From Candidatus Nomurabacteria bacterium (GTDB lineage Bacteria; Patescibacteriota; Minisyncoccia; Phycocordibacterales; UBA9973), in NCBI GenBank assembly GCA_016699085.1, contig CP064958.1, positions 196,141 to 260,140 of the forward strand: a stretch of 64,000 bases of DNA, written 5' to 3'. The notes below the pieces were generated by a model that searched no databases, was not told the origin of the DNA, and was given only the letters and a program-made list of their open reading frames with translations. The position numbers were made by a program, and so were the translations under genes. Of the stretch, positions 12,054 to 59,640 are shown piece by piece. The first letter of the stretch is position 1, and every line of letters starts with the position of its first letter.

Positions 12054-12059
12054 AAAACA

Positions 12060-12094
12060 CCCGGGATCAACTGATCCCGGGATTTTTATTTTTC
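12060..12094 (+). terminator. Rho-independent terminator (possibly bidirectional)
   Basis: CCCGGGATCAACTGATCCCGGG hairpin followed by ATTTTTATTTTT. Confidence 0.6.
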
Positions 12095-12099
12095 TGTCT

Positions 12100-12696: not shown

Positions 12697-12699
12697 AAC

Positions 12700-12730
12700 C
12701 CGACCTTTTGGTCGGGTTTTACTCTAAAAA
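12700..12730 (-). terminator. Rho-independent terminator
   Basis: Minus-sense AAACCCGACCAAAAGGTCGGGTTTT. Confidence 0.55.
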
Positions 12731-12733
12731 AGT

Positions 12734-14507: not shown

Positions 14508-15464
14508 TTAATTATACTGTTCAAGCACTTGCTCCTCAACATTTGAGATTTGTAGAATGCCACCAGAAATATCAGAGACTTTGACTCCACCTATCATTGC
14601 TGTTATGCCAATTTTGTAGGTCCCATTTTCAAGGGTTGTCGGAAGGACGACATTTTCAGATTTATCCATGATGGTACTTGAGACAACGGTGGTAATTTTA
14701 CCAGTTTGTTGATTGCTCATTTGGATTGTTCCTGTACTAGTACCTGCGATATTACACGTACTCCATCCCACATAAAGACCAGCACCAGCAGACGCACTTA
14801 GGATTTGACCTGGATTTAATGAATTAATTTTGAGTTGGGGAACTGATGGCTGGCAACCAGTGGTAAAAGAGAGAATTTCTCCTTGCTTTATTGTTGAACC
14901 ATACTTTGCATAGGCTTGGAAGTAATATGTTTTGTTGTTTTGAATCAATGCTGGTCCGATAAGAAATGCAGCAGTATTCATATTGCCTACTGCATAACCG
15001 GATGTTTTATGAGACAAGTTAGTTTGTGATGTTCCCCATTGAAACCATTGCTGAGAAGGCTTGGTGCCTGCATACGTGGCATTTAAGCTAGCCCAATCAT
15101 ATCCTACACCTGATACAGCCTTAGTAACTATAGTTCCAGCCTGACCAGTACTTCCTATCTCTCCTCCAGTTGTCTGACCAGATGTTGTTCCACTTGTACC
15201 AGATCCATTAGAAATAGTGCCTGCAGAACCAGAAGTTGTAGAGCCACCTGTTGTAGCGATACCACCCGCCCAGCCATCAAGTTCAGGATCACCTCCCTCA
15301 AGAATATCTTTTTTCCAATCATTATAGACCAAACCTTCCTGATTTGCCTGACGATCAGAAATATTGATAAATATAAAATATCCTGCGATTGCAATAATGA
15401 CAATCAAGAGAAAAACTCTGACCGAACTGTATTGTGGATCTTTAAAAAAATTCATAATAAACAT
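14508..15464 (-). CDS. Membrane-anchored or secreted Gly/Thr/Ser-rich protein
   Basis: N-terminal TM/signal segment, then a long low-complexity G/T/S region and a C-terminal beta-rich domain. Confidence 0.4.
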   Translation of the reverse strand: MFIMNFFKDPQYSSVRVFLLIVIIAIAGYFIFINISDRQANQEGLVYNDWKKDILEGGDPELDGWAGGIATTGGSTTSGSAGTISNGSGTSGTTSGQTTGGEIGSTGQAGTIVTKAVSGVGYDWASLNATYAGTKPSQQWFQWGTSQTNLSHKTSGYAVGNMNTAAFLIGPALIQNNKTYYFQAYAKYGSTIKQGEILSFTTGCQPSVPQLKINSLNPGQILSASAGAGLYVGWSTCNIAGTSTGTIQMSNQQTGKITTVVSSTIMDKSENVVLPTTLENGTYKIGITAMIGGVKVSDISGGILQISNVEEQVLEQYN

Positions 15465-22983: not shown

Positions 22984-25620
22984 TCATGAAGATATTTTAA
23001 TATGCTTATTTCTACTACTTGAATATTGAAACCATAATTTTGCAAGCTCAACAAGTGCCACATTGAGCACGAGCCACACGCCGACTACCCAGAGCCACGA
23101 GAGTGGTAGTGGTGCTATACCAAACACTTCGCGCATAAATGGTATGGTAATTGTCGCGATCAATATGAGAAATGCAATGAGAACACTCAAGTTGAGTTTT
23201 TTGTTTGAGAAAACATTGTACGAAAAAAGTGGGCGGTGCAGACTTCGAAATGAAAAGGCCACCACTAAAATATATGAAGAAAAACAAACAAAGAATATTG
23301 AGCGCGCGACCGGTACAGCAAGTCCGATCGATATAAGCCACCAATAAAGGAAGAAAAGGAGCACTGAAGTCATTACACCAATACCAAGGGAAATCACCTT
23401 GACCTCTTTTGTAAATAAATCTTTTGCAAATGAATGATGATTTTTTTCCTTATCAAGATCTTGATCAAACGCAAATGCGAGTGCTGGTAGACTACCTGTA
23501 AAAAGATTAACCCAAATAATCTGTAGCGCAGTAACAGGAAGCGCGATGCCCGCGACCAAGCTTCCACCGACCACAATGACCTCATCCAAAGAATTAGACA
23601 TCAGGTACATAAACGTTTTACGTACATTCGCAAGAATCCGTCTTCCTTCATCGATTGCCATAGTAATGGTCTGGAAATTATCATCAAGTAACACCAGATC
23701 TGCTGCACTTTTTGCTACATCACTTCCAGACCCAAGTGATACTCCAATATCCATTGCTTTCAATGCTGGGGCATCGTTTACACCATCGCCTGTCATTGCC
23801 ACCACCTCACCTAAATCCCTATAGAGCATACCCACCCGCAACTTGTCTTCTGGTGTCACGCGGGCAAAAATCTTGATGCGTGGAATAATTTCTTTCAATT
23901 CTTCGTCATTCATTGTATGAATGTCATTACCTGTAATTATTTCTGTATCCGTCACATGCCAACCAAGCGCTGTTGCTACCGCAAGCGCTGTACCTCGCAA
24001 GTCTCCCGTCATAATCACGACTCGCACACCTCGTGCCTCAATCGTGCGAATCGCTTCCGGCACCTCTTCGCGGATCGGATCATGGAAAGACAAGATACCT
24101 TTAAATTCAATGTTGGTTATTGCGTCCGGATGCATGCGCGACACTTCTTCGTGCCTGAGTGTACCGAGCGCGATCAAGCGCTCGCCGCGTGAGCTAGTCT
24201 CATGGATCCATGATTCAATACGCAAATATTCATCTTTCCCGATCGCTGCTCGTTTGAGCAACACATCGGGAGCTCCCATCACTATATACATGCGGTCATG
24301 CGAGGACACTGAAAATTTATTGGTCGAATTGAAAGGAATATGCAAAAGTGATTTTTTGGAAAGCATTGAGTCGATCGAAATGTGGTGCAGAAGGCACGCC
24401 TTTGCAATATTCACTTCAAACGGCCGTCCGATAAACTTCCATTCGCTCTCGGGTGATTGTGGATTTTCAACAACCACATCTATGTTGGAAAGTGCGAGTG
24501 TCAAAATACTTTTTTGTTCCGGAGAAAGATGCGCAAGATGTCCTGAAGTATGCGAGGGCAGAAGAAGAACCGAGACTGGATACACGCCGACAAGCTGCAT
24601 GTCGGCTTTGGTAAGTGTGCCTGTCTTGTCTGTCATGATCATCGTCGTAGATCCAAGTGTCTCAGCTGCTGCGAGTTTCCGCACCACGCCCTTCCTCGCT
24701 GCAATACGCTCGGCGCCGACCGCAAGAATCACTGTAAGCGCTATCGGCAATGCTTCCGGAACAGCACCGACGGCAACAGCAAGCGAAAGTACGAGCATAT
24801 TAAAAATTGGTTCACCTTTCAAAAGCCCCAGGACAAAAATAGCAACTACGATCAGAATCGTGATGCAAAAAATAAACCATGACAATTTCTTAATGCCAGT
24901 CTGTATCGGGGTGGGGGCGCGGTCAATCGAGCTGACGATCCCAGCTATCTTCCCGATTTCAGTATGTATGCCCGTATGCACAACGAGCGCAGTTGCAAAA
25001 CCTTCCACAACAAGCGTCCCTGCGTGGACCATGTTGATGCGGTCCGCAACCAGCACCGCTTCGGCAATCTGATCAACCTTTTTTTCGATCGGGAGCGATT
25101 CACCAGTCAGTATGGCTTCATCGATACGCAGATTGTTTACAGAAATAAGCCGTGCATCTGCCGGTACTCTCGAACCATACGATAGTTTGATAATATCTCC
25201 AGGGACCAACATCATCGAGTCGATTTCTTGTTCGATTCCCTCACGCATAACTCGCGAACGATCCTTGATGTAGGTCGCAAGCTGATCGAGCGTGTGTTCA
25301 GCGTGATACTCGCGATAAAATCCAAGTCCCACATTTACCACAACCGCGCCGATGATGACACCCATGTTGACCCATTCACCGAGCACCCCGGTAAGTACTG
25401 CCGCTCCGACGAGTATAAAAATCAGCGGACTTGCAAACTGTTTTGCAAGCAATCGCGTCACGCTTGCACGTTCGCGTCTTTGAAAATCATTACTGCCATA
25501 CTCTGCCACCCTCGTAGCTACCTCTACCTCTGTGAGGCCTTCAGGACGTGCTTCTAATTTCCGCAATAATTCATCAGCGGTTGCAAACCATGGCGCTGAA
25601 ATTGATACTTTTTTATCCAT
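22984..25620 (-). CDS. Cation-transporting P-type ATPase (P2-type, Ca2+/Mg2+-like)
   Basis: DKTGTLT phosphorylation motif, TGDGVNDAPALK, N-terminal cation-ATPase domain. 878 aa with 10 predicted TM segments. Confidence 0.9.
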   Translation of the reverse strand: MDKKVSISAPWFATADELLRKLEARPEGLTEVEVATRVAEYGSNDFQRRERASVTRLLAKQFASPLIFILVGAAVLTGVLGEWVNMGVIIGAVVVNVGLGFYREYHAEHTLDQLATYIKDRSRVMREGIEQEIDSMMLVPGDIIKLSYGSRVPADARLISVNNLRIDEAILTGESLPIEKKVDQIAEAVLVADRINMVHAGTLVVEGFATALVVHTGIHTEIGKIAGIVSSIDRAPTPIQTGIKKLSWFIFCITILIVVAIFVLGLLKGEPIFNMLVLSLAVAVGAVPEALPIALTVILAVGAERIAARKGVVRKLAAAETLGSTTMIMTDKTGTLTKADMQLVGVYPVSVLLLPSHTSGHLAHLSPEQKSILTLALSNIDVVVENPQSPESEWKFIGRPFEVNIAKACLLHHISIDSMLSKKSLLHIPFNSTNKFSVSSHDRMYIVMGAPDVLLKRAAIGKDEYLRIESWIHETSSRGERLIALGTLRHEEVSRMHPDAITNIEFKGILSFHDPIREEVPEAIRTIEARGVRVVIMTGDLRGTALAVATALGWHVTDTEIITGNDIHTMNDEELKEIIPRIKIFARVTPEDKLRVGMLYRDLGEVVAMTGDGVNDAPALKAMDIGVSLGSGSDVAKSAADLVLLDDNFQTITMAIDEGRRILANVRKTFMYLMSNSLDEVIVVGGSLVAGIALPVTALQIIWVNLFTGSLPALAFAFDQDLDKEKNHHSFAKDLFTKEVKVISLGIGVMTSVLLFFLYWWLISIGLAVPVARSIFFVCFSSYILVVAFSFRSLHRPLFSYNVFSNKKLNLSVLIAFLILIATITIPFMREVFGIAPLPLSWLWVVGVWLVLNVALVELAKLWFQYSSSRNKHIKISS

Positions 25621-25724: not shown

Positions 25725-27452
25725 TTACTGGCAGTATTCCCAAAAATCTTTTTTATAATTCGTTGCGCTCGCGACACCTGTCCCTATATACCCTCTGCCA
25801 CCAATACTAAAACCAGTAGCATTATTGCGAGCTATTCCCCCGAAGTCCGCTTTTTGTGTCCATGAATCAGCTATCGAATCATATTCCCAAAAATCTTTCT
25901 TGTAGCCACTTACTGCATTACCTGTCCCCACATATCCCTTGCTGCCAATAGTAAAACCCACTGCACCATCGCGTGCTACCCCACCAAAATCTGCTTTTTG
26001 AGTCCACGTGTTTAGAGTTGGATCATATTCCCAAAAATCATTCTTTTTACCCAACTCATCTTCTCCTGTTCCAAGGTATCCTTTTCCATTCAATGCAAAA
26101 CCAACCGCCCTACTTCGAGCAGTCCCCGCGAAATCAGCTTTCTGCGTCCAGGTATCCGTGGTCGGATCATATTCCCAGAAAAAATTATTATTCGGGCTAT
26201 TGATATTGTGCCCGGTGCCAATATATTCTTTAGAATTTAGTGAGGAGGCAACACTTTGATGCCAGCTAACAACATTAGCACTTGCCTTCTGTGTCCAAGT
26301 ATTCAACGCAGGATCATACTGCCACATATCATCAAACGGACCGGTCGCCCAATTTATCCCTGTCCCCACATATCCCTTGCCGCCGATCGCAAAACCGACA
26401 GCTGCCATACGAGCAGTCCCCGCGAAGTCCACTTTTTGGGTCCAGGTGTTTGTGAGTTGATCATACTGCCAAAAATCTTTACGAAATTTATTTGTTCCGC
26501 CATTATATGCGTATCCCGTTCCCACATATCCTTTGTTGTCGATAGAAAATCCTACGGCTTCATGGCGCCCCATACCCCCAAAATCTGCTTTTTGCGTCCA
26601 GGTATTTGGCGTACACGCCGCGAGCGCCACGTTTACCGTCGTCTGTGCCGATGTCGTATTCGCGGTGCCGATTGCAGTCAACTTAAAGAGTGTTGTTTGC
26701 GTAAGCGGTCCCGTGACAATAGAACCTTCAGCTATTGGTGCAGCTGCCCCCACGCCCTGATCGATCGATCCTGTATTGCAGTTTACTGTCTTCCAATTGA
26801 GCACGGTCGTCTGTCCATAGGTTACGGTTTGCGGTGTTGCATTAAAAATAGAGATCGTGCATTGCGGTGGCGGCACAACCGTCACAATCTTGGTGGCTGA
26901 TGTGGTGTTGATAGAGTTTGAGGCGGTCAGGATGAAAATGGTTGTTTGCGTAAGAGGGCCGGATGAAATAGTACCATCTACGGGAACATTGCCGGTCACA
27001 GGTGAGATAGAAACAGTCGTGCAGTTGGTGGTGTTCCACGTGAGAGTAGCAGTGGCGTTGTAAGGAATAGATGGCGGTAATGCAGTGAAAGAATTAATCA
27101 TACACGGAGTAGGAATCCCAACCGTCACTTTAGCAGTCGCAGTGATAGTATTGGTGTCTCCGACGGCAGTAAGAAGATACACTTTTGTAGAAGTGAGCGG
27201 ACCGGTACCAACTGATCCTGTAGGAAAAGGCGAGTTAATAAGAGTCGTAGAACCTTGCGTGATCGCATGGGACATGCAGCCTGTCGTGGACCAACTAAGA
27301 GTAGAGGATCCACCTGAAGCAACTGTAGCAGGCACAGCTTTAAACGAAATAATCGCACATGGAGCAAGGGTTTCATCATCCGCAGAAACCGTAAAAGGGT
27401 TGCTGTATGTAAAAGCTACAACTATAAGGACTCCCCAAAATATGTTTTTCAT
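25725..27452 (-). CDS. Secreted Ig-like plus beta-propeller repeat protein
   Basis: Signal peptide, three N-terminal Ig-like modules, then about 7 repeats of the form WTQKADFGG-AR--AVGF-IG-KGY-GTG...KDFWEYD. Confidence 0.5.
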   Translation of the reverse strand: MKNIFWGVLIVVAFTYSNPFTVSADDETLAPCAIISFKAVPATVASGGSSTLSWSTTGCMSHAITQGSTTLINSPFPTGSVGTGPLTSTKVYLLTAVGDTNTITATAKVTVGIPTPCMINSFTALPPSIPYNATATLTWNTTNCTTVSISPVTGNVPVDGTISSGPLTQTTIFILTASNSINTTSATKIVTVVPPPQCTISIFNATPQTVTYGQTTVLNWKTVNCNTGSIDQGVGAAAPIAEGSIVTGPLTQTTLFKLTAIGTANTTSAQTTVNVALAACTPNTWTQKADFGGMGRHEAVGFSIDNKGYVGTGYAYNGGTNKFRKDFWQYDQLTNTWTQKVDFAGTARMAAVGFAIGGKGYVGTGINWATGPFDDMWQYDPALNTWTQKASANVVSWHQSVASSLNSKEYIGTGHNINSPNNNFFWEYDPTTDTWTQKADFAGTARSRAVGFALNGKGYLGTGEDELGKKNDFWEYDPTLNTWTQKADFGGVARDGAVGFTIGSKGYVGTGNAVSGYKKDFWEYDSIADSWTQKADFGGIARNNATGFSIGGRGYIGTGVASATNYKKDFWEYCQ

Positions 27453-27602
27453 AAGCGCGTTATATCATATGCGTATTATTTGTCAAATACAGAGTAGTTG
27501 ACTTATTTGATAATTTAAGGTACAACGTTACCAAGCTGTTACTCGCGCCTGGACCTTTCCTTGCGGATAAAGAGCAGTTTCTTAACAAAAAAATAACAAG
27601 AG

Positions 27603-29165
27603 ATGAAAAAGATTACAACTTTTTTTCTTGCACTGACACTGTCGTGCATTGCAGTTTACTCACAATCACCACCTGTGATAGAAGAGGTTAAAAACATTGG
27701 AGGCAGCGCTAATGACTCTGCGTGCGGTTCAATTGTAACCCCGGATGGGGGCTACATTATCTTTGGCAGAACTGAGTCTGAAGATGGTGATGCTCCAAAC
27801 AATTTCGGGAAATATGATGCCTATGCAATAAAATTTAATTCTGCCGGCACCAAAGTATGGGGAAACAATTTTGGTGGCAGCCAAAATGAAATTTTTAACA
27901 ACGGTATTGCCCTTTCCGGCGGCGGATATGCATTTGTTGGTTATACATTTACTGCCAATGATAGCGATCAGGTAAAAGGTAAGCATGGAGGTGGGAGTAC
28001 TAGCGACATCTGGTTTGTTAAAACAGATGCCCAGGGCAATCTTACTCAGCAGAAATGTGTAGGCGGATCTGGTAACGACATAGGTGTTGGCCTTACTGAA
28101 TTAGCTAATGGAGGAATACTCATCTTCGGTAATACTTACTCAAACGATTTTGAGGTTTCCGAAAATTTTGGAGGATCTGATATGTGGCTAGTTGCCTTAG
28201 ATGCAAATGCAGAAAAAGCCTGGGACTTAAGCTACGGAGGAAGTGGTGATGATGCAATTAATGATATTTACGTTTCAGGCACTCAAACCAGTATCGCTGG
28301 AAAAACAAACTCTCTGGACTTCGGTTATTATTACAGTACAGGAGGTAATGATGGAGTATTTTTGAAGATCCAAAATTCTAATGGCTTGCAATTAGGTCTG
28401 ACAATTTTTGGAAGCACCTCAGATGATGAATTTATTTCTATCACTGCAGATGGAAGTACACTACTTCTTACCGGTACCACATCTGATGCAGGAACTGAAG
28501 ACTTCTGGTCCGCACGCATAGACGATAATGGTAATCTTTACTGGCAAAATCTTCAGGGAGGTTCAGGAAGTGATCAACTAAATAGTGGCTGTTTCAAGGG
28601 ACCTTTTGTGTTTACTGTAGGATCGACGAATTCCAACGATGGAGTATTTGTAAATAACCATGGTGGAACCGACGGATTTATCGACAAAAGAGTCTTACAG
28701 GAGTATGAACAGGGTGCACTTGAATGGCAAATGTTAGTCGGAGGAAGTGGTGATGATGCTATCGTATCAATTACCGATCTCGGTAGTGGAAGTTACCGTG
28801 TTGTTATGAATAGCAACTCTACTGACGGAGATCTTGCTGCTGGCAACCCAAAGGGCGGAAGTGATATTGTCATTGTAAGACTCGGAGGTGACTTTCCGAC
28901 AAATGGGGATAACATCATTGATGAACAATCAATAAATGTTTATCCAAATCCTGTTGCAGATGTTGCCACTATTTCGTTCGGTAATATTGCACCGGAAGAA
29001 TACGCAATAGTAAATATGCATGGACAGACTGTACTGTGTGGAAATTTGGTGCCTGGCACACAGAACATCATAGTTAACGGCAACGATTTGTCTACTGGTA
29101 CTTATTTCCTTTACCTTTCTATTGGTGAAGAAATAATTACAAAAGAACTCGTAGTTCAAAAATAA
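27603..29165 (+). CDS. Secreted beta-propeller (SBBP-like repeat) protein with T9SS-type C-terminal sorting domain
   Basis: Signal peptide. GGS-ND...DGGY...G-T-S-DGD repeats. C-terminus INVYPNPVADVATISFGN...YAIVNMHGQTV...GTYFLYLSIGEEIITKELVVQK matches the Por_Secre_tail pattern. Confidence 0.6.
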   Translation: MKKITTFFLALTLSCIAVYSQSPPVIEEVKNIGGSANDSACGSIVTPDGGYIIFGRTESEDGDAPNNFGKYDAYAIKFNSAGTKVWGNNFGGSQNEIFNNGIALSGGGYAFVGYTFTANDSDQVKGKHGGGSTSDIWFVKTDAQGNLTQQKCVGGSGNDIGVGLTELANGGILIFGNTYSNDFEVSENFGGSDMWLVALDANAEKAWDLSYGGSGDDAINDIYVSGTQTSIAGKTNSLDFGYYYSTGGNDGVFLKIQNSNGLQLGLTIFGSTSDDEFISITADGSTLLLTGTTSDAGTEDFWSARIDDNGNLYWQNLQGGSGSDQLNSGCFKGPFVFTVGSTNSNDGVFVNNHGGTDGFIDKRVLQEYEQGALEWQMLVGGSGDDAIVSITDLGSGSYRVVMNSNSTDGDLAAGNPKGGSDIVIVRLGGDFPTNGDNIIDEQSINVYPNPVADVATISFGNIAPEEYAIVNMHGQTVLCGNLVPGTQNIIVNGNDLSTGTYFLYLSIGEEIITKELVVQK

Positions 29166-29174
29166 AAAGAACAA

Positions 29175-29212
29175 TGAGCCTTTCCAAAACATGGAAAGGC
29201 TTTTTTATTTTG
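29175..29212 (+). terminator. Rho-independent terminator
   Basis: AGCCTTTCCAAAACATGGAAAGGCT followed by TTTTTTATTTT. Confidence 0.6.
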
Positions 29213-29243: not shown

Positions 29244-30281
29244 TTACAAGACAGGCTCTTGTACTTGCTTCTTATACCAATGGTGCTCGATCGTATATTC
29301 GTCATAGCCATGGACGAATGTTGCGATAGCAGTACCGATAAGTATGAGGTGTGGCCAGACCGCTTCTCCAAAAAAGAGAAGTGACATCGTTAGGAACGAG
29401 AGGAAGAAGAGCGACGTGAATCGTATTTCAAATCCAATCATAAAGAAAAGACCAATCAGAAGTTCAAGTGCAAATGCACCGAAAACGAGAAACATCGGAT
29501 CAAATGGAAAGTAGTTTGTTAGGTTATATTTAGCGACCGTATCAAGCGCAAGCGTGCCATGGAGAAACTTGGCGTAGCAAGAGGCAAACATAAGGGATAC
29601 ACCAAAGAGTATCCGCATAATCAGAAAGCTATACGGTCGTATATGAGCTGCCATTTGGGTCAACATAACTGACCAAGACGTAGGCTTTGAGTATATGCGA
29701 TATGCACCGCCAAAAATAACAAGGACTGTTGCTTCACCTAAGTACGTAAAGTAGCTAACCATGTAGATTCCTTTTTTGGAAAACATATAAAGAAAAAGTA
29801 ATCCAACGATAAAACTTCCAATTCGAGGAAAGAATCCAAAAAGTACTGAGACGCCCACAGCATAGACAATAAACTGAAATAAGAGTGTGTGGGCTGGGAA
29901 AAAGTAACTAAATGGTAATTCCAATCCAAAAATTGATCCATAATATGCACTTGCTATGAGCGCCAATCCGAAAGTTGCCTGTGCAATGTGACCTGCGTAT
30001 GGTTTTATTTTGAACAGTAATGGATCAATCTTGCGTTCGAGCCATTTTGAGATTGAAAGAAAAAAGACAAGCGTAATACTAATGCAAACAACGAAGCCCC
30101 AAAAAAGAAACTCATACGTATGCCCTAAAACAACTTCTCTAAAATTAAGCGCTGGGGCTTGGAGGGCACTATTTACTTCCTCACTATTTAACACATAGAC
30201 TTCATGTGCGCGAGCTATGTATGGCAATAGGATGGCACTAAGACCAGCTAGTAGGAAACCAAAACGTTTTGAGAGTTGCAT
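29244..30281 (-). CDS. Polytopic membrane protein (about 9 TM), unknown function
   Basis: Hydrophobic throughout. No diagnostic motif. Confidence 0.4.
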   Translation of the reverse strand: MQLSKRFGFLLAGLSAILLPYIARAHEVYVLNSEEVNSALQAPALNFREVVLGHTYEFLFWGFVVCISITLVFFLSISKWLERKIDPLLFKIKPYAGHIAQATFGLALIASAYYGSIFGLELPFSYFFPAHTLLFQFIVYAVGVSVLFGFFPRIGSFIVGLLFLYMFSKKGIYMVSYFTYLGEATVLVIFGGAYRIYSKPTSWSVMLTQMAAHIRPYSFLIMRILFGVSLMFASCYAKFLHGTLALDTVAKYNLTNYFPFDPMFLVFGAFALELLIGLFFMIGFEIRFTSLFFLSFLTMSLLFFGEAVWPHLILIGTAIATFVHGYDEYTIEHHWYKKQVQEPVL

Positions 30282-30424
30282 AGAAAAAGTATATCAAGAA
30301 AAAGAACTTATTTGTAATTTTTATATGCTGCAATTTCACCTTTGTGGAAAGTATTGACGACACTTTGCTGCATACTATAATACATAGAGGCCGAATTTAT
30401 TAAAGTATTGCTACTTATAATTAT

Positions 30425-34195: not shown

Positions 34196-36673
34196 TTATA
34201 ATTTTGGACATGTTTCTTGAGTCCAAGTAGTGTAGAGTCCTTGTGTTATCTTGCCCCAAAGGCCATCAACTTTAGTTCCGAGAATTGTTTGAGCTGTCTT
34301 AATGCCACTAAGTGATTTTGGTCCAATAATACCATCAGTCACTAGTTCCGGAGTAGCTGCATCTAGTTGATTGACTGCCTTTTGTACCACCTTTGCATCT
34401 TCACCTTTGAGTCCAATTTTAACAAGTAAAACAGGAGTTCCAGCAACTTCACATCCAAGCGCAAAGTCACTAGGATCTATTTCATTATCATCGAGGGTAC
34501 TTGTACAACCTGGATCACTCGGATAATCCATCTTGCCATCACTATCATTATCTTGTCCATCACCGCAACTGTAGGAAATATAGTTACCACCGGAGCCAGC
34601 TGGAGGAGCTGGAGTTTCTTCAACAATTACTTCTTCATCAGCTTCATTATCATCATTACTATCGGTACAACCTGGATCATCTGCATCAATAATACTGTCA
34701 CCATCATTATCAACATCATCTCCGCACTGATAGGTTACAGTATTGCCTGTTGTAAAGGTTTGATCACTAGATGTTGCTATATTGCCACTTGCATCTGTTG
34801 ATATAAGTGAAACATAGTAAAGCGTACCTGGAGTAAGGCTCTGTAGTGTAACGGAATGACTAGTAACACGAGGTAATGTGTCACTCGTACCAGTCGTTAA
34901 ACCGTAACTTGTTGTAGTGCCATAGTTTACTAGCGTCGAAGCTAATTCATCAGTTGTCCAAGTGGCTACAGCCGTAGTATCCGTAGGGGAAATTGTAATA
35001 CTTGATATTACTGGAGCAGTGATATCTGGTGTATCTGGTGTCACTTCTGTATAACTAAAGCCTGCTGAACAACCAGAGACATTACCAGAACTATCAGTTG
35101 CCGTTGCTTTAAATGTTGTTGTTGAATTGTCTGCAACTGAGACTGTGAGACCTGGGGAGGCAAATTTATTTGACGTGCCGGAAATAACAACACTTTCGGC
35201 ACATGCGCTATCTGCGTATATTTTTACTGTTGTACCACTTGGTGCTGTTCCTTTTAGTTTTGGACTATTGTTGTTTGATCCAGAAATTGGATTAGCAGAA
35301 GTGATTGTTGGAGTTACCGGTAAAACAATAGCGAGTGTTGTAAAGAAATTATCCGACGAAGCCCCAATATTCCCTGCCGCATCTTTTGATTTTACAGAAA
35401 AATGGTACAGCGTATTGGCAGCTAGTCCGGTTATTGTCACGGTATGGTTAGTCACTTTGGGGGAAATATTTGTTTCGCTTGTCGAATTAGTATATGAGGT
35501 TGTTGTACCATAATCTACACTGGATGAAGATGCTTCATTAGTAGACCAGGTAATAGTTGCTGTCGTCTGGGTAGATGTAACACCGATTGAAGAAATAACT
35601 GGATCAGTAGTATCTGGTGTCACTTCTGTATAACTAAAGCCTGCTGAACAACCAGAGACATTACCAGAACTATCAGTTGCCGTTGCTTTAAATGTTGTTG
35701 TTGAATTGTCTGCAACTGAGACTGTGAGACCTGGGGAGGCGAAAGCTGCTGCAGTTCCAGAAGTAACCGCACTGCCAGTACAGCCAGCTGTTGTATAAAG
35801 TGCAACAGTCGTGCCTGAGTCAGCAGAGCCTAGAAGCTTCGGGCTTGTATTATTCGATCCAGAAATTGGATTTGAAGAAGTTATAGTAGGCGTGACTGGA
35901 GGAATTACAACAGCTGCGTCTGTTGTAAATGTATTATCTGAAGAAGTGCCTGTATTGCCACTTGCATCTTTTGACTTCACATCAAAATGATAGGCCGTAT
36001 TTTGCGTAAGCCCAGTAATCGTAACTGAATGTTGAGTTACCATTGGCAATACATCCTCTTCAGTTGTTGTTCCGTATGAAATTGTCCTACCATATTCAAC
36101 AATAGAAGAAGCATTTTCATTAGTATTCCAGGTTATTGTGGCAGATGTTTCACCAGGATCAACCGCAATTGAAGATATAACTGGATCAGTTGTATCTGGC
36201 ACTACAATATCACTTATAACTACGGTAATTGGATCACTCTGTTCTGATGTATTACCACTTGTATCTGTAGCACTAACCGCGAAGATATAGGTGCCAGCAG
36301 AAAGACCAGTAATTGTTGCTGTATTGGTTGTTACTGTTGCAACGACATTGCTTGTTTTATCATTAATGTTATTTTGATTTGCATTTGGAGTCAGTGCACT
36401 CTTAATACTGCCACCAAAATCAACAATACTATTAACAACAGTTGAGAATGTACTTTGTTGTTTTGGTCCCGGGCCCGTGGTCGTTTCATCAACCGGCGTT
36501 GGCCGCTGCCGCACCGGGGTATCAGAGACTGGAGATGGATCTGCATCAATAACTCTAGCTACCCCAGTAAAATTTTGATTACTGTGGGTGAGTATAAAAT
36601 AACCACCGCCAATAATAACAGCGAGAAGTAACACTATTTTTGCTGCGTTGTAGTTCGGATTAGAAAAATTCAT
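34196..36673 (-). CDS. Large secreted FN3-repeat protein with C-terminal peptidoglycan-binding domain
   Basis: N-terminal TM/signal segment. Repeated about 95-aa FN3-like units (ATITWNTNE...YGTTTSY...TVTITGL). C-terminal LVTDGIIGPKSLSGIKTAQTILGTKVDGLWG (PG_binding_1-like). Confidence 0.55.
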   Translation of the reverse strand: MNFSNPNYNAAKIVLLLAVIIGGGYFILTHSNQNFTGVARVIDADPSPVSDTPVRQRPTPVDETTTGPGPKQQSTFSTVVNSIVDFGGSIKSALTPNANQNNINDKTSNVVATVTTNTATITGLSAGTYIFAVSATDTSGNTSEQSDPITVVISDIVVPDTTDPVISSIAVDPGETSATITWNTNENASSIVEYGRTISYGTTTEEDVLPMVTQHSVTITGLTQNTAYHFDVKSKDASGNTGTSSDNTFTTDAAVVIPPVTPTITSSNPISGSNNTSPKLLGSADSGTTVALYTTAGCTGSAVTSGTAAAFASPGLTVSVADNSTTTFKATATDSSGNVSGCSAGFSYTEVTPDTTDPVISSIGVTSTQTTATITWSTNEASSSSVDYGTTTSYTNSTSETNISPKVTNHTVTITGLAANTLYHFSVKSKDAAGNIGASSDNFFTTLAIVLPVTPTITSANPISGSNNNSPKLKGTAPSGTTVKIYADSACAESVVISGTSNKFASPGLTVSVADNSTTTFKATATDSSGNVSGCSAGFSYTEVTPDTPDITAPVISSITISPTDTTAVATWTTDELASTLVNYGTTTSYGLTTGTSDTLPRVTSHSVTLQSLTPGTLYYVSLISTDASGNIATSSDQTFTTGNTVTYQCGDDVDNDGDSIIDADDPGCTDSNDDNEADEEVIVEETPAPPAGSGGNYISYSCGDGQDNDSDGKMDYPSDPGCTSTLDDNEIDPSDFALGCEVAGTPVLLVKIGLKGEDAKVVQKAVNQLDAATPELVTDGIIGPKSLSGIKTAQTILGTKVDGLWGKITQGLYTTWTQETCPKL
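35030..35739. repeat. Intragenic direct repeat: 131 bp identical at 35030-35160 and 35609-35739 (period about 579 bp)
   Basis: Both copies of GTATCTGGTGTCACTTCTGTATAACTAAAGCCTGCTGAACAACCAGAGAC...GAGACCTGGGGAGGC can be read directly in the sequence. Confidence 0.85.
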
Positions 36674-36744: not shown

Positions 36745-39561
36745 TTAATTTAAAATTTTTGTAATATTACTATAGCTTTGTGGGCAACCACCTACAATAA
36801 CATCAGTATATAGTTTTGAAAAAATATCCGGAATAATCTCATCAGCATGCCCTACTTTATGACCCGTATCAGGCCAATGGGTAAATGTTGATGGAATAAC
36901 AGTCATAATCTGATCAAAAGCACTTTTAACCAATGTGTAGTCAAGTGTAGCATCATCTTCACCATGATAATCATGCATTGGTCCATCGTTCGCATCAAGA
37001 AATGTATTAAGCATTGTCATAGTCACACCTCCTGGATGTCCAGCAGCAGAACAAATCCATGATGGTTCACTCATATTACTCAAACTCACTCGCGCATCGC
37101 TTGTAATCGCTACATTATTCATGTTATTACCAAGCATATCAGCCGTAAATGAAGTAAGTCCACCTGCCGAGGTACCTGTTGCCACAATTCGATTTTTATC
37201 AAAATTATAAAGTCCAGCATTCGCGCGAGCCCATCGCACCGCAGCTGCAAGATCGGTGCCTGCTAAAATTTGATTGGCATTATTAAAATTACCGCCACCT
37301 GCACCTCGATAGTTTATCGATGCACATGCCCAACCTCGCATGGTGAAATCCTTGCACCAACCACTGTCAGCCTTATCTCCCCCGCCACCATGTAGATTAA
37401 ATGCAAGTGGTAATCGTTCGTTGGATTCATTTGGTGGTAAATATAAATCAAGTTTTAAATCAGAATTATCATTATCTGGAGCTGATGCGTATTGAATATT
37501 AGCTATTTTAGTTACCTCTGCAAATTCATATATTTCATTACAATAACGAATTGACCCGGTATCATTAGTATTACTTGTTACACAATTTGTCGATCCTCCT
37601 ATTCCTACATCATTTTGCCCTTCTTCATTGCCGTCTTCATCAATAATCTGATACACCGTATACTCTTCTATCTCACCACTATTATCTATTGATGGATCCC
37701 ATGTAAGTGTCACGCTAGATGGTGACTGTTCGGTTACTTCAATATCTGTAGGTGGAGTCGGTGGAACTTTATCTTCAATTGATAGCTCTTCACTATCTAG
37801 GCCTTCGATCCTGGTAATACTAAATGGCCTGAGCACTACAGCACTTGTACCGGAAAAAGAAACCGAATCCCCATCAATAATTGGAGTAAAGGCATCGGTA
37901 TTGCGCTCATCGGCACGTCCGTATGTAGAAGAGAGTTTTTGTCCATAGACTTCAGTCAGTGTAATATTCGCACCCGGATCGTTTATTGCCACACCGTCAA
38001 ATGAAATTGCTGAAAGCGGAATACTTTTATTTGACCAGTTAAATATAAAGTAGAGATTTTCACCACTATTTAAATCCGTAAATCCATAAAGTTGCGCCTG
38101 ACCGATCGGTACATCAGCTGGGAAAGTTGGCACCACATCGAGCACATCATGGAATCCGTCGAAGACTGGTTTTATAAGTTTATAAGTAAGACCTACTGCA
38201 TTTAATTTAAGTGCATTTTTTGTGTAATATGAACCATACAGTTCGTCAACAGGAATGGTACTGTCATTGGTATTTGGTTTTGTTTTCGAGACAAGATTTT
38301 TTAAACTACCACTAAAACTCATAAGTGAAGCGCTTTTTACCGCATTGTTGTGGTCATCATTAAATTCAGCGATTTTAAATAGCATTTCTCCCATAGTTGC
38401 AGCATTTGCGAACGTATTCTCAAATGCAGCCGTTGAAAATTCAGGATTGATAGTACTTTGATCATAATTATTTATATTGATCTGCGTGGCACGAAATCCG
38501 CGAGCTGGTCCGAAGTACGAGGTATATGCATCGAGTACATTGGGCACATGCACGTCGAGCATTTCACGTGCACGGTCTCGAAAGCAGGCAAATATATCAA
38601 ATCCTGTCACCTCAGGATTATTGACTGGATCACATACCTCGTCAGTATTTACAAATCCATCGGTCCACAAATACGCACCAATGTCTAGTTTGTCGATATC
38701 AGCAAACGCAGTCCGGATTGCAGCATTCCAATTCGAACTTACACCATAGTCAGCCTGATTTGGATTAGGCACTACTGTGTGAAGTTGAATACGGATATCA
38801 GGATAGTTCTGTTGAATTGCGAGTGCGATTGGATGAACACGAGCAATGAAATGATCAACGTCAGGAAATGCAACTTGGCCGTTTTCTCGTGATGGAGCAT
38901 TGGGGCCACATTCAGAACAAAGCTGGACTCCCTCCACGACAATTCCTTGATCAATAAGTCCCTGGATAGCAGAGAGGCTCTCACTAATTGCAAGATTGAT
39001 ACTTGCCGAATCAACAGGCACTGGTGCTGTCAAACCAACCGCACTTTGTGTAACAACGTTCAAACTATACGTCACCACTGGACGGCGAATATTTTGGGCG
39101 AGATCAATGTATTTATCATAGAAGCGAGTAAACGGATTCCCATTGCTACCATTAAATGTGGTTGAGTAAGACATTTCCGTATCCTTAGTGCCATCGCTAT
39201 TCCAAAATTCGTTTTCTTCAAAAATAAGTCCCATACCTGGTCCGTCGTGGTGAGCGTAGTTAGAAGTTACGCCTGGATGGATACGGAGCATGTTAATACC
39301 AGTATCAGAAAAAATCTTTCGGATATCAGTATTGGAAGTATCAAAAAGCGTGCCCGCGCCCGTATCAAATCCAGTAGAGAGGAGTGACGGCAATACTGCA
39401 CCTTCTTCAATTGGACCTCCAAGATCAATCACCTGAGCACGGTTAAAAAAATTCCTTATACTAGTGTTGAAAACTATAAAAATCCCAAGAGCAACAACAG
39501 CAAGAACTAGTAAAGTAAACTTGATGGCATCGTTATGATGATTTTTTAAAAAGGTAAGCAT
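36745..39561 (-). CDS. Secreted multidomain protein: N-terminal TM anchor, glycoside-hydrolase-like barrel region, FN3, C-terminal alpha/beta-hydrolase (esterase)
   Basis: C-terminal LAFNLHGGGGDKADSGW...YRGAGGG...GTSAGGLTS (HGGG oxyanion and GxSxG). FN3 TDIEVTEQSPSSVTLTWDPSIDNSGEIEEYTVYQ. Start trimmed to MLTFLKN to avoid overlap with the upstream paralog. Confidence 0.5.
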   Translation of the reverse strand: MLTFLKNHHNDAIKFTLLVLAVVALGIFIVFNTSIRNFFNRAQVIDLGGPIEEGAVLPSLLSTGFDTGAGTLFDTSNTDIRKIFSDTGINMLRIHPGVTSNYAHHDGPGMGLIFEENEFWNSDGTKDTEMSYSTTFNGSNGNPFTRFYDKYIDLAQNIRRPVVTYSLNVVTQSAVGLTAPVPVDSASINLAISESLSAIQGLIDQGIVVEGVQLCSECGPNAPSRENGQVAFPDVDHFIARVHPIALAIQQNYPDIRIQLHTVVPNPNQADYGVSSNWNAAIRTAFADIDKLDIGAYLWTDGFVNTDEVCDPVNNPEVTGFDIFACFRDRAREMLDVHVPNVLDAYTSYFGPARGFRATQININNYDQSTINPEFSTAAFENTFANAATMGEMLFKIAEFNDDHNNAVKSASLMSFSGSLKNLVSKTKPNTNDSTIPVDELYGSYYTKNALKLNAVGLTYKLIKPVFDGFHDVLDVVPTFPADVPIGQAQLYGFTDLNSGENLYFIFNWSNKSIPLSAISFDGVAINDPGANITLTEVYGQKLSSTYGRADERNTDAFTPIIDGDSVSFSGTSAVVLRPFSITRIEGLDSEELSIEDKVPPTPPTDIEVTEQSPSSVTLTWDPSIDNSGEIEEYTVYQIIDEDGNEEGQNDVGIGGSTNCVTSNTNDTGSIRYCNEIYEFAEVTKIANIQYASAPDNDNSDLKLDLYLPPNESNERLPLAFNLHGGGGDKADSGWCKDFTMRGWACASINYRGAGGGNFNNANQILAGTDLAAAVRWARANAGLYNFDKNRIVATGTSAGGLTSFTADMLGNNMNNVAITSDARVSLSNMSEPSWICSAAGHPGGVTMTMLNTFLDANDGPMHDYHGEDDATLDYTLVKSAFDQIMTVIPSTFTHWPDTGHKVGHADEIIPDIFSKLYTDVIVGGCPQSYSNITKILN

Positions 39562-39613: not shown

Positions 39614-40783
39614 CTAGTCAATAATATGGGAAAGATTGCTATAACTTTGAGGACAGCTCTCAACTATAAGTTCTTTGTATGCAGTGGGTATCACTATTTT
39701 ATCCATTGCAGCATCTTCTCCTAGTCCATGCCCTGAATCATCAAAACATTTGAAATAACTTGGGATACCAAAGCTTTGCATAATTCCAAGCGCTTCATCA
39801 CCATCATCATTTTGTGAATCATCTGGATCTGAACAGTGCCAACCATGAGTCGTATCTTCACCTCCCAAGAAAAACACAGATGGCGGATCATTGGCATCAA
39901 TATAGTCATAAGCAAAAGGTGCAAGTGGTCCAGACGTACTCGTCACCATACAACTCCATGATGGGACAATACTACTTTGATACATTTGGTTATCTCTGTT
40001 AACTAGTGCATCACTTGATGGGTAAAAAGATGCATCATTAGCCGTAGCCGCAGCGAGCATCGAAGTGATTCCTCCAGCAGAAGTCCCCGCTAGTAGTATT
40101 TTATTTGGGTCAATGCCATATTCACTAGCATGAATTCGGGCAAATCGTATAAGTGCAAGCATATCTGAGGCTGCATGCTTCTGCTCTGACATGGTAAAAC
40201 CCATATTTGTGTGATCAGTTCGATAGTCACCTGAGATGCAAACATAGCCAAGACGGGCAGCTTCATTGCATGGCGCTGCTCCACCTTCAGCTTCTCCTCC
40301 ACCTCCATGCATAAATATTTTAAGTGGACGGTTAGTTACAATATCGGAAAGCGGTGGTGTATACAGATCAAAACTCAAATTATAAGTTTCTGAAAACTCT
40401 CTTGAAATTGGATCTGGTATCTCTGATTGGTCAAAAATCTCATTGCAGTAGCGGAGTGTACCTGGAGTACCAGCCACATCTGGATCACAAATTGGAATTT
40501 CCTCTTCATCTTCGCCAGTAATTTGGTATACCGTATATTCTGCTACATCACCACTATCATCGGATGAAGGATCCCATGAGAGAGTGGCTGATGATGACGT
40601 TGTTGATTGAACAGCAAGATTGGTAGGGATGGATGGTGCAATCAAATCAATCACCTGAGCTGGATTAAAATTATTCCTAAGATTCGTATTAAAAACGATA
40701 AAAACTCCAAGCGCAATAATGGCAACTATAAAGAAAAAGAGTTTAACGACATCGTATTGGGGATTTCGTAGAAAATAAAACAT
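39614..40783 (-). CDS. Secreted FN3 plus alpha/beta-hydrolase (esterase), paralog of the 3' half of 36745-39561
   Basis: Shares the N-terminal anchor (LGVFIVFNTNLRNNFNPAQVIDL), the FN3 (ATLSWDPSSDDSGDVAEYTVYQ), HGGGGEAEGG, GTSAGGITS and the C-terminal CPQSYSN motif with the larger neighbour. Confidence 0.55.
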   Translation of the reverse strand: MFYFLRNPQYDVVKLFFFIVAIIALGVFIVFNTNLRNNFNPAQVIDLIAPSIPTNLAVQSTTSSSATLSWDPSSDDSGDVAEYTVYQITGEDEEEIPICDPDVAGTPGTLRYCNEIFDQSEIPDPISREFSETYNLSFDLYTPPLSDIVTNRPLKIFMHGGGGEAEGGAAPCNEAARLGYVCISGDYRTDHTNMGFTMSEQKHAASDMLALIRFARIHASEYGIDPNKILLAGTSAGGITSMLAAATANDASFYPSSDALVNRDNQMYQSSIVPSWSCMVTSTSGPLAPFAYDYIDANDPPSVFFLGGEDTTHGWHCSDPDDSQNDDGDEALGIMQSFGIPSYFKCFDDSGHGLGEDAAMDKIVIPTAYKELIVESCPQSYSNLSHIID

Positions 40784-59639: not shown

Positions 59640-59640
59640 A

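Follow-up and report, generated by a model that had tools for sequence, protein, structure and literature searches.

Organization of the locus

At positions 27603–29165 of the window, by which I mean the whole 64,000-nucleotide stretch of DNA that was analysed, lies a complete open reading frame whose product ends in a C-terminal domain (CTD) of the kind that a type IX secretion system (T9SS) uses. The features of the gene and of its surroundings are the following.

25725..27452, minus strand: divergent gene of the 5′ flank, secreted product without a CTD; a Kelch propeller and, at the N-terminus, three Ig-like repeats
27453..27602, plus strand: intergenic promoter/leader, common to the divergent Kelch gene; conserved 5′ recombination flank
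27603..29165, plus strand: complete ORF of 520 aa with an ATG start; signal peptide, seven-bladed propeller, linker and T9SS type A CTD, in this order
27603..27662, plus strand: Sec/SPI-type signal peptide, residues 1–20, MKKITTFFLALTLSCIAVYS; predicted cleavage between VYS and QS
27663..27665, plus strand: Gln21, predicted to stand at +1 in the mature protein; hallmark of the Bacteroidetes Q-rule
27666..28898, plus strand: seven-bladed β-propeller body of the CylK-propeller type, residues 22–432; degenerate repeats of ~58 aa
28899..28937, plus strand: linker, residues 433–445, with a GDFPT motif; pLDDT <50 at 433–438
28938..29162, plus strand: T9SS type A CTD, residues 446–520; seven-strand Ig-like β-sandwich ending in KELVVQK, the last residue of the protein included
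29176..29212, plus strand: intrinsic terminator with an 11-bp stem, a 5-nt loop and a T-run; bidirectional between convergent genes, within the variable cassette
29244..30281, minus strand: DoxX-like membrane protein of 345 aa, 3′ flank and anchor gene; identical to GenBank QQR50509.1

The signal peptide was assigned by inspection and family alignment only: it begins with MKK, has a hydrophobic core with a maximal 12-mer hydropathy of 2.5, aligns with those of 74 family members and contains an N-terminal helix (residues 2–17) in the structure model. The linker motif, in the form GDF[PG]T, is common to the candidate phyla radiation (CPR) alleles in an alignment of the three. The divergent neighbour had been described initially as a secreted protein with Ig and propeller domains, and it does carry a signal peptide, Ig-like repeats and a Kelch propeller, the last matched by Kelch Pfam families. 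This gene is syntenic in sister genomes, with 75% nucleotide identity vs 87–92% in the surrounding genes, indicating faster evolution. On the other side, the anchor gene product shares 92% amino acid identity with its sister, with an omega (dN/dS) of 0.09. The conserved 5′ leader gave no Rfam match at E ≤ 1 and its folding energy is ordinary (z = −1.2); a riboswitch or other RNA element in it was rejected on these grounds.

The C-terminal domain is a T9SS type A CTD

The initial annotation had recognized a T9SS sorting domain at the C-terminus, and both sequence profiles and structure comparison bear this out. Residues 446–518 match PF18962 (Por_Secre_tail) over profile positions 1–75 of 75, with an E-value of 2.2e-10 and 41.1 bits (gathering threshold 27), and the NCBIfam profile TIGR04183 matches over positions 1–72 of 72, with an E-value of 1.4e-9 and 37.8 bits (cutoff 23). 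Searched against the PDB, the profile of the protein family reaches the CTDs of solved T9SS cargo proteins (8GLK_D, E 3e-10; 8GLJ_D, 1.6e-9; also 7PZJ, 5JVK, 5UYT and 8QB1). An AlphaFold (AF2) model of the CTD alone has seven strands and a pLDDT of 95.3. It superposes on 8GLK_D with TM-scores of 0.75/0.81 at 2.2 Å, on 8GL8_D with 0.71/0.77 and on the CTD of mirolase (8QB1) with 0.73/0.69, as well as on 8GL6_D and the RgpB CTD; for the cargo CTDs 8GLK, 8GL8 and 8GL6 the TM-scores span 0.70–0.81. Foldseek E-values for the CTD are only ~1e-3, as is usual for small Ig-like domains, and the specificity of the assignment comes from the sequence-profile matches.

Solved T9SS CTDs are seven-strand (3+4) Ig-like β-sandwiches (PMC11285876). 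The present domain, which scores above curated thresholds, lies at the extreme C-terminus, has a predicted signal peptide upstream and is modelled as a seven-strand sandwich, is accordingly of type A. It resembles the CTDs of NucA and RemA (Flavobacterium johnsoniae, in the SprA–PorV complexes 8GLK, 8GL6 and 8GL8), of mirolase (Tannerella forsythia, 8QB1) and of RgpB (Porphyromonas gingivalis, 5AG8 and 7PQ4) in its ~75-residue sandwich at the extreme C-terminus (TM-scores of 0.61–0.81) and in the YPNP, G.Y and C-terminal K..VV.K motifs. The difference lies in the partners: the solved cargo CTDs are recognized by PorV/SprA and those of type A are removed by PorU, whereas such partners are unexpected in the lineage of the window.

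The body is a predicted propeller homologous to that of CylK

The family consensus comprises seven repeats of ~58 aa, and the AF2 model of the full protein has seven blades with 28–29 strands (pLDDT 85.5 overall, mostly 85–97 in the body). When the family profile was compared with the PDB, positions 22–434 matched the propeller of CylK (7RON/7FH6) with an E-value of 2.5e-42; Foldseek with the model also found CylK (E 5e-20, TM-score 0.64, ~23% identity). In Pfam, PF18962 was the sole family to match the full protein at E ≤ 1, and no repeat family matched the body. Of the original description as an SBBP-like propeller, the propeller thus stands, on the seven-blade model and the CylK homology, while the SBBP label (PF06739), having no Pfam match, was not reproduced.

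CylK is a cyanobacterial Friedel–Crafts alkylating enzyme, and its seven-bladed propeller is homologous to the body of the window protein. Its active site is at the interface between the propeller and an N-terminal Ca2+-binding β-roll domain, which supplies Arg105 (PMC8916777). The match covers only CylK residues ~247–660, in contrast, and the window protein has no β-roll domain, its propeller starting at residue 22 directly after the predicted signal peptide. The lack of this domain makes a CylK-type catalytic role unlikely, to judge from the sequence.

Relatives of the protein point to the Bacteroidota

More than 1000 homologs share the propeller and CTD architecture. A look at their taxonomy, proposed at the outset, showed an otherwise Bacteroidota family of T9SS cargo proteins: 9 of the 10 named matches are Bacteroidota, taxon labels being available for only ~10 of the 120 homologs listed, and the names include Chryseobacterium, Flavobacterium, Chitinophagales, Bacteroidales, Flavobacteriales, Leeuwenhoekiella and Bacteroidota. 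The gene for one of the top matches, P0004, adjoins a PorV gene, and there are sister architectures with a type B CTD (PF13585). Counterparts of ~510 aa in Chryseobacterium foetidum (P0013), Flavobacterium enshiense (P0079) and Bacteroidales (P0045) are collinear with the query over 100% of its length at 28–36% identity (E 1e-60 to 1e-99), with a signal peptide ending in A before the Q, seven ~58-aa repeats and a CTD of type A. Their annotation reads "T9SS type A sorting domain-containing protein" or "delta-60 repeat protein". These counterparts belong to diderm organisms that possess a T9SS, whereas the window protein is encoded in a CPR genome, in an allele-swapping slot (see below), and its repeats are more degenerate, with 26–35% identity to family members compared with an average of 44% among the members themselves.

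The N-terminus bears a second mark of this affinity. A Gln at +1 after SPI cleavage, the so-called Q-rule, is specific to Bacteroidetes (PMC5837995). A cleavage site of the form [small]-x-[AGSC] followed by Q is present in 68 of 75 family members, both full-length CPR alleles included (VYS before Q21 in the window protein, AMA before Q in the sister allele P0017), while the remaining four cleavable signal peptides of the window all lack Gln at +1. Together with the family distribution and the PorV neighbour, Gln+1 favours a Bacteroidota origin, and the gene was most likely derived by transfer from Bacteroidota. The propeller bodies are roughly equidistant (27–38% identity), which precludes a rooted phylogeny. 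One of the best matches, P0003/P0032 (loci L034/L045), comes from a genome that is compact, and the family may thus extend beyond organisms with a T9SS; these loci have no genes in common with the CPR loci. A search of viral contigs with the single protein returned no relative and gave no evidence of a phage vector.

The host lineage and its secretion context

That the window belongs to a small-genome, monoderm-like lineage had been guessed at the start, and the guess corresponds to CPR/Nomurabacteria, as indicated by ArgRS, the anchor gene and a genome of ~0.8 Mb. The ArgRS encoded in the window is 94% identical to that of a CPR MAG and 47–62% identical to most other matches, which come from MAGs labelled Nomurabacteria, Paceibacterota, Parcubacteria or (uncultured) Saccharibacteria. 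The anchor gene gave a 100% match to IPF86_01130 of Candidatus Nomurabacteria bacterium, on a contig of 808,221 bp, and its remaining homologs are at most 55% identical and, wherever named, from Patescibacteria.

A T9SS was considered unexpected in such a lineage, in agreement with the literature on CPR bacteria: T9SS genes are reported absent outside the FCB phyla (PMC11285876) and the outer membrane has been proposed to be missing in CPR (bioRxiv 10.1101/2025.01.22.634366). A check for T9SS core genes had been proposed at the outset; a scan of ORFs of at least 150 aa from the 64-kb window and part of the flanks turned up no T9SS gene (SprA, PorV, PorU/PorZ, PorK/L/M/N, PorP and others) and no outer-membrane gene. 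The annotated ORFs of the window include no glutaminyl cyclase, the enzyme that would convert the Gln to pyroglutamate. The window does contain pilM-N-O-like genes, followed by a tRNA gene and not by a secretin gene. With a custom CTD HMM, neither the rest of the window nor ~450 kb of sequence taken from 23 related MAGs yielded a further CTD, and no CTD gene stands beside the anchor gene in distant relatives. I infer from the lineage and from these searches of the window and its flanks that the T9SS is probably absent in this Nomurabacteria genome. The literature search retrieved no paper on T9SS CTDs in CPR/Patescibacteria.

The gene lies in a slot of hypervariable alleles

The slot between the Kelch and DoxX-like genes is occupied by three allele classes, only 27–37% identical, in four related genomes. 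In pairwise comparisons the slot proteins are 35%, 31–37% and 27% identical, compared with 87–94% identity in the flanks. A metagenome scan with the anchor gene yielded 4 loci, among them one useful new allele (L036). The boundaries of the slot are sharp, at codon 5 and the terminator. On the 5′ side, the leader is ~97% identical to the sister genome L029 over its last 100 nt, and this identity continues across the RBS region and codons 1–4 before it collapses. On the 3′ side nucleotide homology with the sister restarts at 29204, and alleles B and C have a different hairpin at the position of the terminator. Flanks and alleles are incongruent, the former grouping L036 with L029 and the CTD grouping it with the window. 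The gene thus fills a cassette-like hypervariable allelic slot, an observation that is new here. The CPR loci carry no Shine–Dalgarno (SD) motifs, and this trait accordingly does not tell them apart from L034/L045.

Allelic replacement between conserved flanks is general in bacteria at hypervariable surface-protein and antigen loci. The present slot resembles such loci in its conserved flanks, its sharp boundaries at the gene ends, its purifying selection within an allele class, its flank/allele incongruence and its alleles, which predate the split of the species by far. It differs from them in that the cassette encodes a Bacteroidota-type, T9SS cargo-like protein in a CPR bacterium; the comparison rests on four sampled genomes.

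The CTD is present in all four genomes and in all three allele classes, and in every allele it scores above the curated thresholds or with a custom HMM E-value ≤ 1e-17. Between alleles A and C the CTDs are 53% identical and the bodies 25–38%. The family as a whole behaves in the opposite way: over 2536 pairs the CTD averages 25% identity, below the 44% of the body, and none of these pairs combines a CTD identity of at least 50% with a body identity below 40%. The allele B CTD, by contrast, aligns to that of the window protein with ~52 bits, and the best unrelated Bacteroidota CTDs with 50–53 bits; an exhaustive CTD-only search found that these nearest CTDs (~50–53 bits) belong to ordinary Bacteroidota-type cargo with unrelated bodies. 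An exclusive clade of all three CPR CTDs was rejected, only A and C being clearly related. A word-indexed search with the CTD-only alignment returned 84 candidates, all weak fragments, and missed the known alleles too.

The gene is native in composition and under purifying selection

The GC content of the gene (0.411), its GC3 (0.311) and its codon divergence (0.070) all fall inside the native range. A comparison of codon usage and GC with the flanks, suggested initially as a check for foreign DNA, therefore gave no foreign signal. Compared with a 94.6% identical ortholog in L040, the gene has an omega of 0.12; the neighbouring genes range from 0.04 to 0.12. Within this one close ortholog pair, omega is 0.44 for the CTD, with only 10 substitutions, vs 0.10 for the body. 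Three independent contigs encode an identical protein (JGI 3300056831, Logan SRR26425191). Native composition, the omega of 0.12 and synteny in at least four related genomes indicate an established, domesticated gene. That the transfer is not recent follows from the native codon usage, from a conserved leader and a terminator that belong to the gene itself, and from its dN/dS. The horizontal acquisition first proposed accordingly stands as to a Bacteroidota origin, given the family and Gln+1, but not as a recent event.

Discussion

Taken as a whole, the evidence makes it probable that the window contains a Bacteroidota-derived cargo gene that has been domesticated in a CPR lineage, where it resides in an allele-swapping slot and its CTD is kept in a non-secretory role. 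The weakest rival to this account is that a Bacteroidota fragment was joined to a CPR contig during assembly or binning, as metagenome-derived material and Bacteroidota relatives might suggest. The Kelch–CTD–DoxX-like order recurs, however, in independent assemblies of different samples (JGI 3300056831 and 3300045333, Logan SRR26425191, SRR23702518/9 and SRR17549186, NCBI GCA_964563615.1), composition is native and the flanks remain 87–94% identical right up to the ORF ends, by which a chimeric assembly is effectively refuted. Diversity-generating retroelements (DGRs) are common in CPR bacteria, and in-place hypermutation by such an element could be considered for a slot protein that is hypervariable. 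It is nevertheless highly implausible as the source of the allele differences: divergence and indels extend over the whole 500 aa and not one short variable region, evolution within an allele lineage is slow and conservative (94.6% identity, omega 0.12), and neither the annotated ORFs of the window nor those of at least 150 aa that were scanned include a reverse transcriptase. The gene was rejected as a DGR target. A T9SS-like export route or an outer layer of the organism's own, with the CTD as an ordinary working signal, would account for a CTD that is complete and canonical. It is very improbable in a CPR/Nomurabacteria lineage, for which the literature reports neither T9SS nor outer membrane, given a window with no T9SS or outer-membrane gene among the ORFs scanned and with pilM-N-O-like genes followed by a tRNA gene and not by a secretin gene; moreover, a single CTD protein was found, whereas real T9SS organisms have a very large type A cargo set (over 238,000 type A CTD proteins have been catalogued).

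Two further explanations concern why the CTD persists. The gene may have been imported whole, only the propeller mattering and the CTD and Gln+1 being a neutral relic that has so far escaped decay. The higher omega of the CTD in the only close ortholog pair and the fact that the allele B CTD is no nearer to that of the window protein than the best unrelated CTDs would fit this explanation, and compact, harmless orphan domains can persist. Against it, native composition and synteny across species with 6–17% flank divergence imply that a genome streamlined to 0.8 Mb has had time enough to let the domain decay, yet in every allele the CTD is still recognized above the curated thresholds or by the custom HMM, and CTD identity exceeds body identity between A and C, a pattern without parallel among the family pairs; a relic is therefore unlikely, though it deserves to be kept in mind. 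Alternatively, a CPR epibiont of Bacteroidota might retain the CTD and Gln+1 to engage the T9SS of its host, either by docking on surface-exposed PorV or on components of the attachment complex or because the host T9SS handles the delivered protein, with swappable propeller alleles following host-strain specificity. Such mimicry would agree with a CTD that each of the four genomes retains and that, contrary to what the family shows, is conserved relatively better than the body, with Bacteroidota hallmarks at both termini, with the hypervariability expected of a host-interaction factor and with the species specificity of CTD recognition in real T9SSs (PMC11285876). CPR bacteria, moreover, are generally regarded as obligate epibionts. 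I nonetheless consider it improbable: no known mechanism brings the exported protein of another cell to periplasmic T9SS components, a search for evidence on a host of this lineage found nothing, the ~64 kb contain a single CTD protein and 450 kb of DNA from related CPR bacteria contain none, and a generic role as an Ig-like stalk accounts equally well for retention. If true, the gene would represent secretion-signal mimicry of a new kind and would allow the Nomurabacteria host to be predicted from the genome.

The account that I favour, a domesticated Bacteroidota-derived cargo gene with a non-secretory CTD, would proceed as follows. The ancestor of a narrow CPR clade would have taken the whole architecture from the very large Bacteroidota T9SS-cargo family, and the capture would be old enough for full domestication. 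Its deeply diverged alleles would since have been exchanged by homologous recombination in the conserved flanks, the slot behaving like a surface adhesin or antigen locus, possibly under diversifying or frequency-dependent selection by hosts or phages. The product would be a Sec-exported surface or extracellular protein in which removal of the signal peptide exposes Gln21 and a flexible linker joins the propeller to the intact type A CTD. The propeller is most likely a ligand- or cell-binding module, with a probable surface or adhesive role. Since CPR bacteria are thought to have neither outer membrane nor T9SS, the CTD would not be an outer-membrane translocation signal here; I infer that it has been re-used in a non-secretory role, presumably as a module that aids folding, forms a stalk, provides an anchor or mediates interactions.

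Type A CTDs are taken as labels diagnostic of the T9SS of Bacteroidota and the FCB group, and genome surveys score CTD proteins as "T9SS-secreted". The presence of a CTD alone should not be read as T9SS secretion, and the present protein would offer a natural case in which to ask what a CTD does without the machinery, whether as stalk, anchor or interaction surface. For the Nomurabacteria lineage, the slot is a candidate locus of host or phage interaction, and the Bacteroidota hallmarks that it has kept hint at ecological partners or gene-donor neighbours.

A canonical T9SS sorting domain on a propeller

The target protein carries a signal peptide, a propeller body, a linker and a C-terminal domain (CTD), and its gene ends in a strong intrinsic terminator.

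27603..29165 (+): target ORF, ATG start, 520 aa
29176-29202 plus T-run: intrinsic terminator of the target

The initial annotation had recognized a T9SS sorting domain by its residue pattern, and this claim is upheld by profiles, solved structures and modeling. PF18962 (Por_Secre_tail) spans the last 75 residues over its full profile (41.1 bits, gathering score 27), as does TIGR04183 (T9SS type A sorting domain) on the CTD (37.8 bits, cutoff 23). A profile built from 75 family members matched two cargo CTDs caught in the SprA-PorV translocon of Flavobacterium johnsoniae (8GLK_D and 8GLJ_D) and the CTD-bearing chains 7PZJ, 5JVK, 5UYT and 8QB1. The AlphaFold model of the CTD alone (pLDDT 95.3, seven strands) superposes best on 8GLK_D (TM 0.75/0.81, 2.2 A), followed by the T9SS CTDs 8GL8_D, 8GL6_D, mirolase and RgpB. 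The CTD is real and canonical and, by profile, position and fold, the target belongs to the type A CTD family as a domain. The target is not put forward as a functional T9SS cargo, since this lineage is not expected to have the machinery that defines one.

As for the body, described initially as SBBP-like propeller repeats, the propeller stands while the SBBP label does not, since a Pfam search of the body returned zero families at E<=1. The family consensus consists of seven repeats of about 58 aa each, and the full-length model (pLDDT 85.5, pTM 0.80) shows seven blades of four strands. The body shares homology with the CylK propeller (profile E 2.5e-42; Foldseek E 5e-20). CylK is an enzyme whose N-terminal Ca2+-binding domain is required for catalysis and gives Arg105 at the domain interface (PMC8916777). 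It is this N-terminal catalytic partner that defines the enzymes; the target lacks it and is kin to CylK through the propeller only, which argues for a binding rather than an enzymatic role.

Host lineage

The ArgRS encoded in the window is 94% identical to that of a candidate phyla radiation (CPR) MAG (CAZLWF010000005.1), and most other matches (47-62% identical) come from MAGs labelled Nomurabacteria, Paceibacterota, Parcubacteria or (uncultured) Saccharibacteria. Directly 3' of the target lies the anchor gene, whose product matches GenBank QQR50509.1 ('IPF86_01130 [Candidatus Nomurabacteria bacterium]') at 100% identity; the record places that protein on a contig of 808,221 bp, and its remaining homologs are all at most 55% identical and, where named, Patescibacteria. 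Housekeeping genes typical of small genomes are present in the window. T9SS genes are reported to be absent outside FCB phyla (PMC11285876), and an outer membrane has been proposed to be missing in CPR bacteria (bioRxiv 10.1101/2025.01.22.634366); together with the CPR assignment, this literature bears out, at lineage level, the initial view that a T9SS would be unexpected in such a small-genome lineage.

A pilus gene cluster and several other features of the window were recorded:

59100-61255 (-): pilM (PF11104) and two small downstream membrane-protein ORFs, PilN/O-like by position
346-3828 (-): isoleucyl-tRNA synthetase, 1160 aa, with an in-frame histidine-phosphatase-superfamily insert
48494-49873 (-): one 459-aa ORF joining a tRNA-dependent cyclodipeptide synthase domain (TIGR04539, E 2.5e-34) to a periplasmic substrate-binding-protein domain
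10611-13879: nucleotide-metabolism/modification gene cluster
14508-15464, 34196-36673, 36745-39561, 39614-40783 (all -): four native surface/secreted proteins, fn3/BD-FAE esterase-like and unknown

No secretin gene follows the pilM-N-O-like genes, a tRNA-Arg gene coming next, an arrangement consistent with a monoderm-type type IV pilus. A Shine-Dalgarno-like motif (GGAG/GAGG/AGGA) within 22 nt upstream of called genes is as scarce in three CPR loci (L029, 0/22; L043, 1/11; L044, 1/9) as in Bacteroidota-type loci. The IleRS insert (residues about 502-673, cobC/GpmB-like, E 5e-24) lies between the N- and C-terminal halves; in 16 related Paceibacteria loci (L003-L024) an insert of this kind comes after the IleRS N-half, and it evolves much faster than the enzyme (51% identity to L003, versus 93% for the N-half). 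The nucleotide cluster encodes a 480-aa ThyX-like protein, a DUF1599 'nucleotide modification associated domain 1' protein and a 381-aa two-domain dCTP deaminase (PRK07559-like), and might point to a non-canonical pyrimidine pathway.

A probable import from Bacteroidota, long ago

More than 1000 homologs share the full-length architecture of the target, at identities that do not exceed about 36% once its own fragments are set aside. Nine of the ten with a named organism are Bacteroidota, the tenth being a Clostridia protein without CTD. In many relatives a type B T9SS CTD replaces type A, and a PorV gene adjoins one of the best matches. Signal peptides ending in [small]-x-[AGSC]|Q, the Q-rule specific to Bacteroidetes (PMC5837995), occur in 68 of the 75 family members; the target (VYS|Q) and the sister allele (AMA|Q) keep the rule, which none of the window's four other cleavable signal peptides follows. 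A purpose-built CTD HMM, run on the window and on about 450 kb of sequence drawn from 23 related MAGs, detected no further copy, nor does a CTD gene stand beside the anchor gene in more distant Patescibacteria; within this region of the CPR tree the CTD is a rarity. Family taxonomy, the PorV neighbor, the Q-rule and this rarity favor import from Bacteroidota, as first suggested, with donor and direction inferred since taxon labels are missing for most homologs.

The gene is no newcomer. GC (0.411), GC3 (0.311) and codon-usage divergence (0.070) fall where native genes comparable in length fall, so that composition gives no signal of recent transfer. Leader and strong terminator are the gene's own, and an ortholog 94.6% identical is encoded in a fourth genome, L040.

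The classical cleavable signal peptide of the target contrasts with the N-termini of the four native surface/secreted proteins, which bear an unusual signal-anchor, F-x-[KR]-[ND]-[PH]-x-[YN]...[KR], then a TM helix ending ...G.F I.F N (for example MFYFLRNPQYDVVKLFFFIVAIIALGVFIVFNT). This motif may be a lineage-specific sorting or anchoring signal.

A second reason for caution over donor and direction is a well-scoring pair of homologs (P0003/P0032, 31% identical to the target), inserted in an unclassified compact genome close to a 754-aa 'mini' SMC:

L034 9589-12052 and L045 7035-9468: propeller-CTD insertion between rpsP (S16, 99-101 aa) and khpA-trmD

A hypervariable slot

A finding new to this analysis is that the target occupies a hypervariable slot. 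The window and the corresponding locus of a sister species (L029) share 83-92% DNA identity in the flanks, but their alignment breaks at 27614, 11 nt inside the ORF, and restarts at 29204, just beyond the terminator. The L029 slot encodes a 538-aa protein of the same architecture, 35% identical to the target. The third allele comes from a third genome, L036, with a flank 93% identical to that of L029; this allele shares 31-37% identity with the target over its C-terminal 309 residues and 27% with the second allele. The 5' boundary is razor-sharp: identity is about 97% from the last 100 nt of the leader through codon 4, then collapses. At the 3' end, one terminator hairpin is common to the window and L040, a different one to L029 and L036. 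Flank DNA pairs L036 with L029, while the CTD pairs it with the window (53% identity, 85 bits, the top match among the 94 CTDs compared).

Between the target and its L040 ortholog, dN/dS is 0.12 overall (dS 0.20) and 0.10 in the body, comparable to the 0.04-0.12 of flanking genes; the CTD alone gives 0.44, an imprecise value from 10 substitutions only. Since evolution inside an allele class is slow and conservative, the low identity between classes (27-37%) is the outcome of old and deeply diverged alleles being swapped in by recombination within the conserved flanks, and runaway divergence in place is rejected. A DGR is likewise rejected: no RT was found among the scanned ORFs, and divergence extends across the whole protein.

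In 2536 pairs of family members, mean identity is 44% for the body and 25% for the CTD; the CTD is the more identical part in 0.6% of pairs, and none combines a CTD of at least 50% with a body below 40%. The window and L036 alleles show just this unseen combination (body 25-38%, CTD 53%), whereas between the window and L029 alleles CTD (33%) and body are conserved to about the same degree. A swap of the body that spared the CTD and a relatively tighter constraint on the CTD are the two readings; under both, the CTD is being retained in the CPR lineage. An exclusive clade of all CPR CTDs is not claimed, because in an exhaustive search of 1.84 billion representatives the CTD of the target matched that of L029 with 52 bits and the best unrelated Bacteroidota CTDs with 50-53 bits.

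Three genes at or near the slot were recorded:

25725-27452 (-): Kelch-propeller neighbor, secreted, with three N-terminal Ig-like repeats of about 95 aa and conserved Cys pairs
22984-25620 (-): P-type cation ATPase, 878 aa; GC 0.46 (window mean about 0.40)
L029 12790-13482 and L040 4296-4988: endonuclease V, 230 aa, between the DoxX-like and DUF1328 genes

The divergent neighbor is indeed a secreted Ig plus propeller protein, as initially described. It is the fastest-evolving flank gene (75% nt identity to the sister, versus 87-92%), which suggests that it and the target, secreted propeller proteins transcribed divergently, together make up a variable surface module. The leader at 27500-27602, about 97% identical to the sister genome, exceeds the neighboring coding DNA (87-92%); it has zero Rfam matches and ordinary predicted stability, and may be a promoter/operator common to both genes. 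The P-type ATPase adjoining the slot is a lineage-specific insertion, present only in the window lineage; in L029 an FtsX-like gene abuts the Kelch gene. Endonuclease V, across which L036 aligns to L029, is missing from the window (about 30282-30400) and found in the sisters only, a second indel at the slot border. Genes are thus both gained and lost in the immediate neighborhood.

Meaning of an orphan sorting domain

The target is an orphan cargo protein of T9SS type whose gene has been domesticated by a CPR genome and takes the form of a swappable allelic cassette. I propose that it is exported by Sec and cut by signal peptidase I, the mature protein presumably ending up outside the single membrane with the propeller as a variable binding surface. 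In a cell having no outer membrane the CTD would be unable to act as a T9SS translocation signal; it may persist as a compact Ig-like module serving stability, spacing, anchoring or partner binding. By analogy, the slot would act like a surface adhesin/antigen locus under diversifying or frequency-dependent selection.

That the CTD is a neutral relic appears unlikely, and mimicry directed at the T9SS of a host is a distinctly weaker candidate. An endogenous T9SS is very improbable, as no T9SS or outer-membrane gene was found among the window ORFs scanned. A chimeric artefact is excluded, because the same gene order around the target recurs in assemblies made independently from several samples.

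No paper on T9SS CTDs in CPR/Patescibacteria was found; the GenBank copy of the target is presumably already labelled a T9SS sorting-domain protein by automated annotation. This orphan shows that T9SS secretion cannot be read from counts of CTDs. With a solid descriptive side and a functional meaning that I infer, the domesticated cassette offers a testable lead on CPR surface biology and the partners involved.
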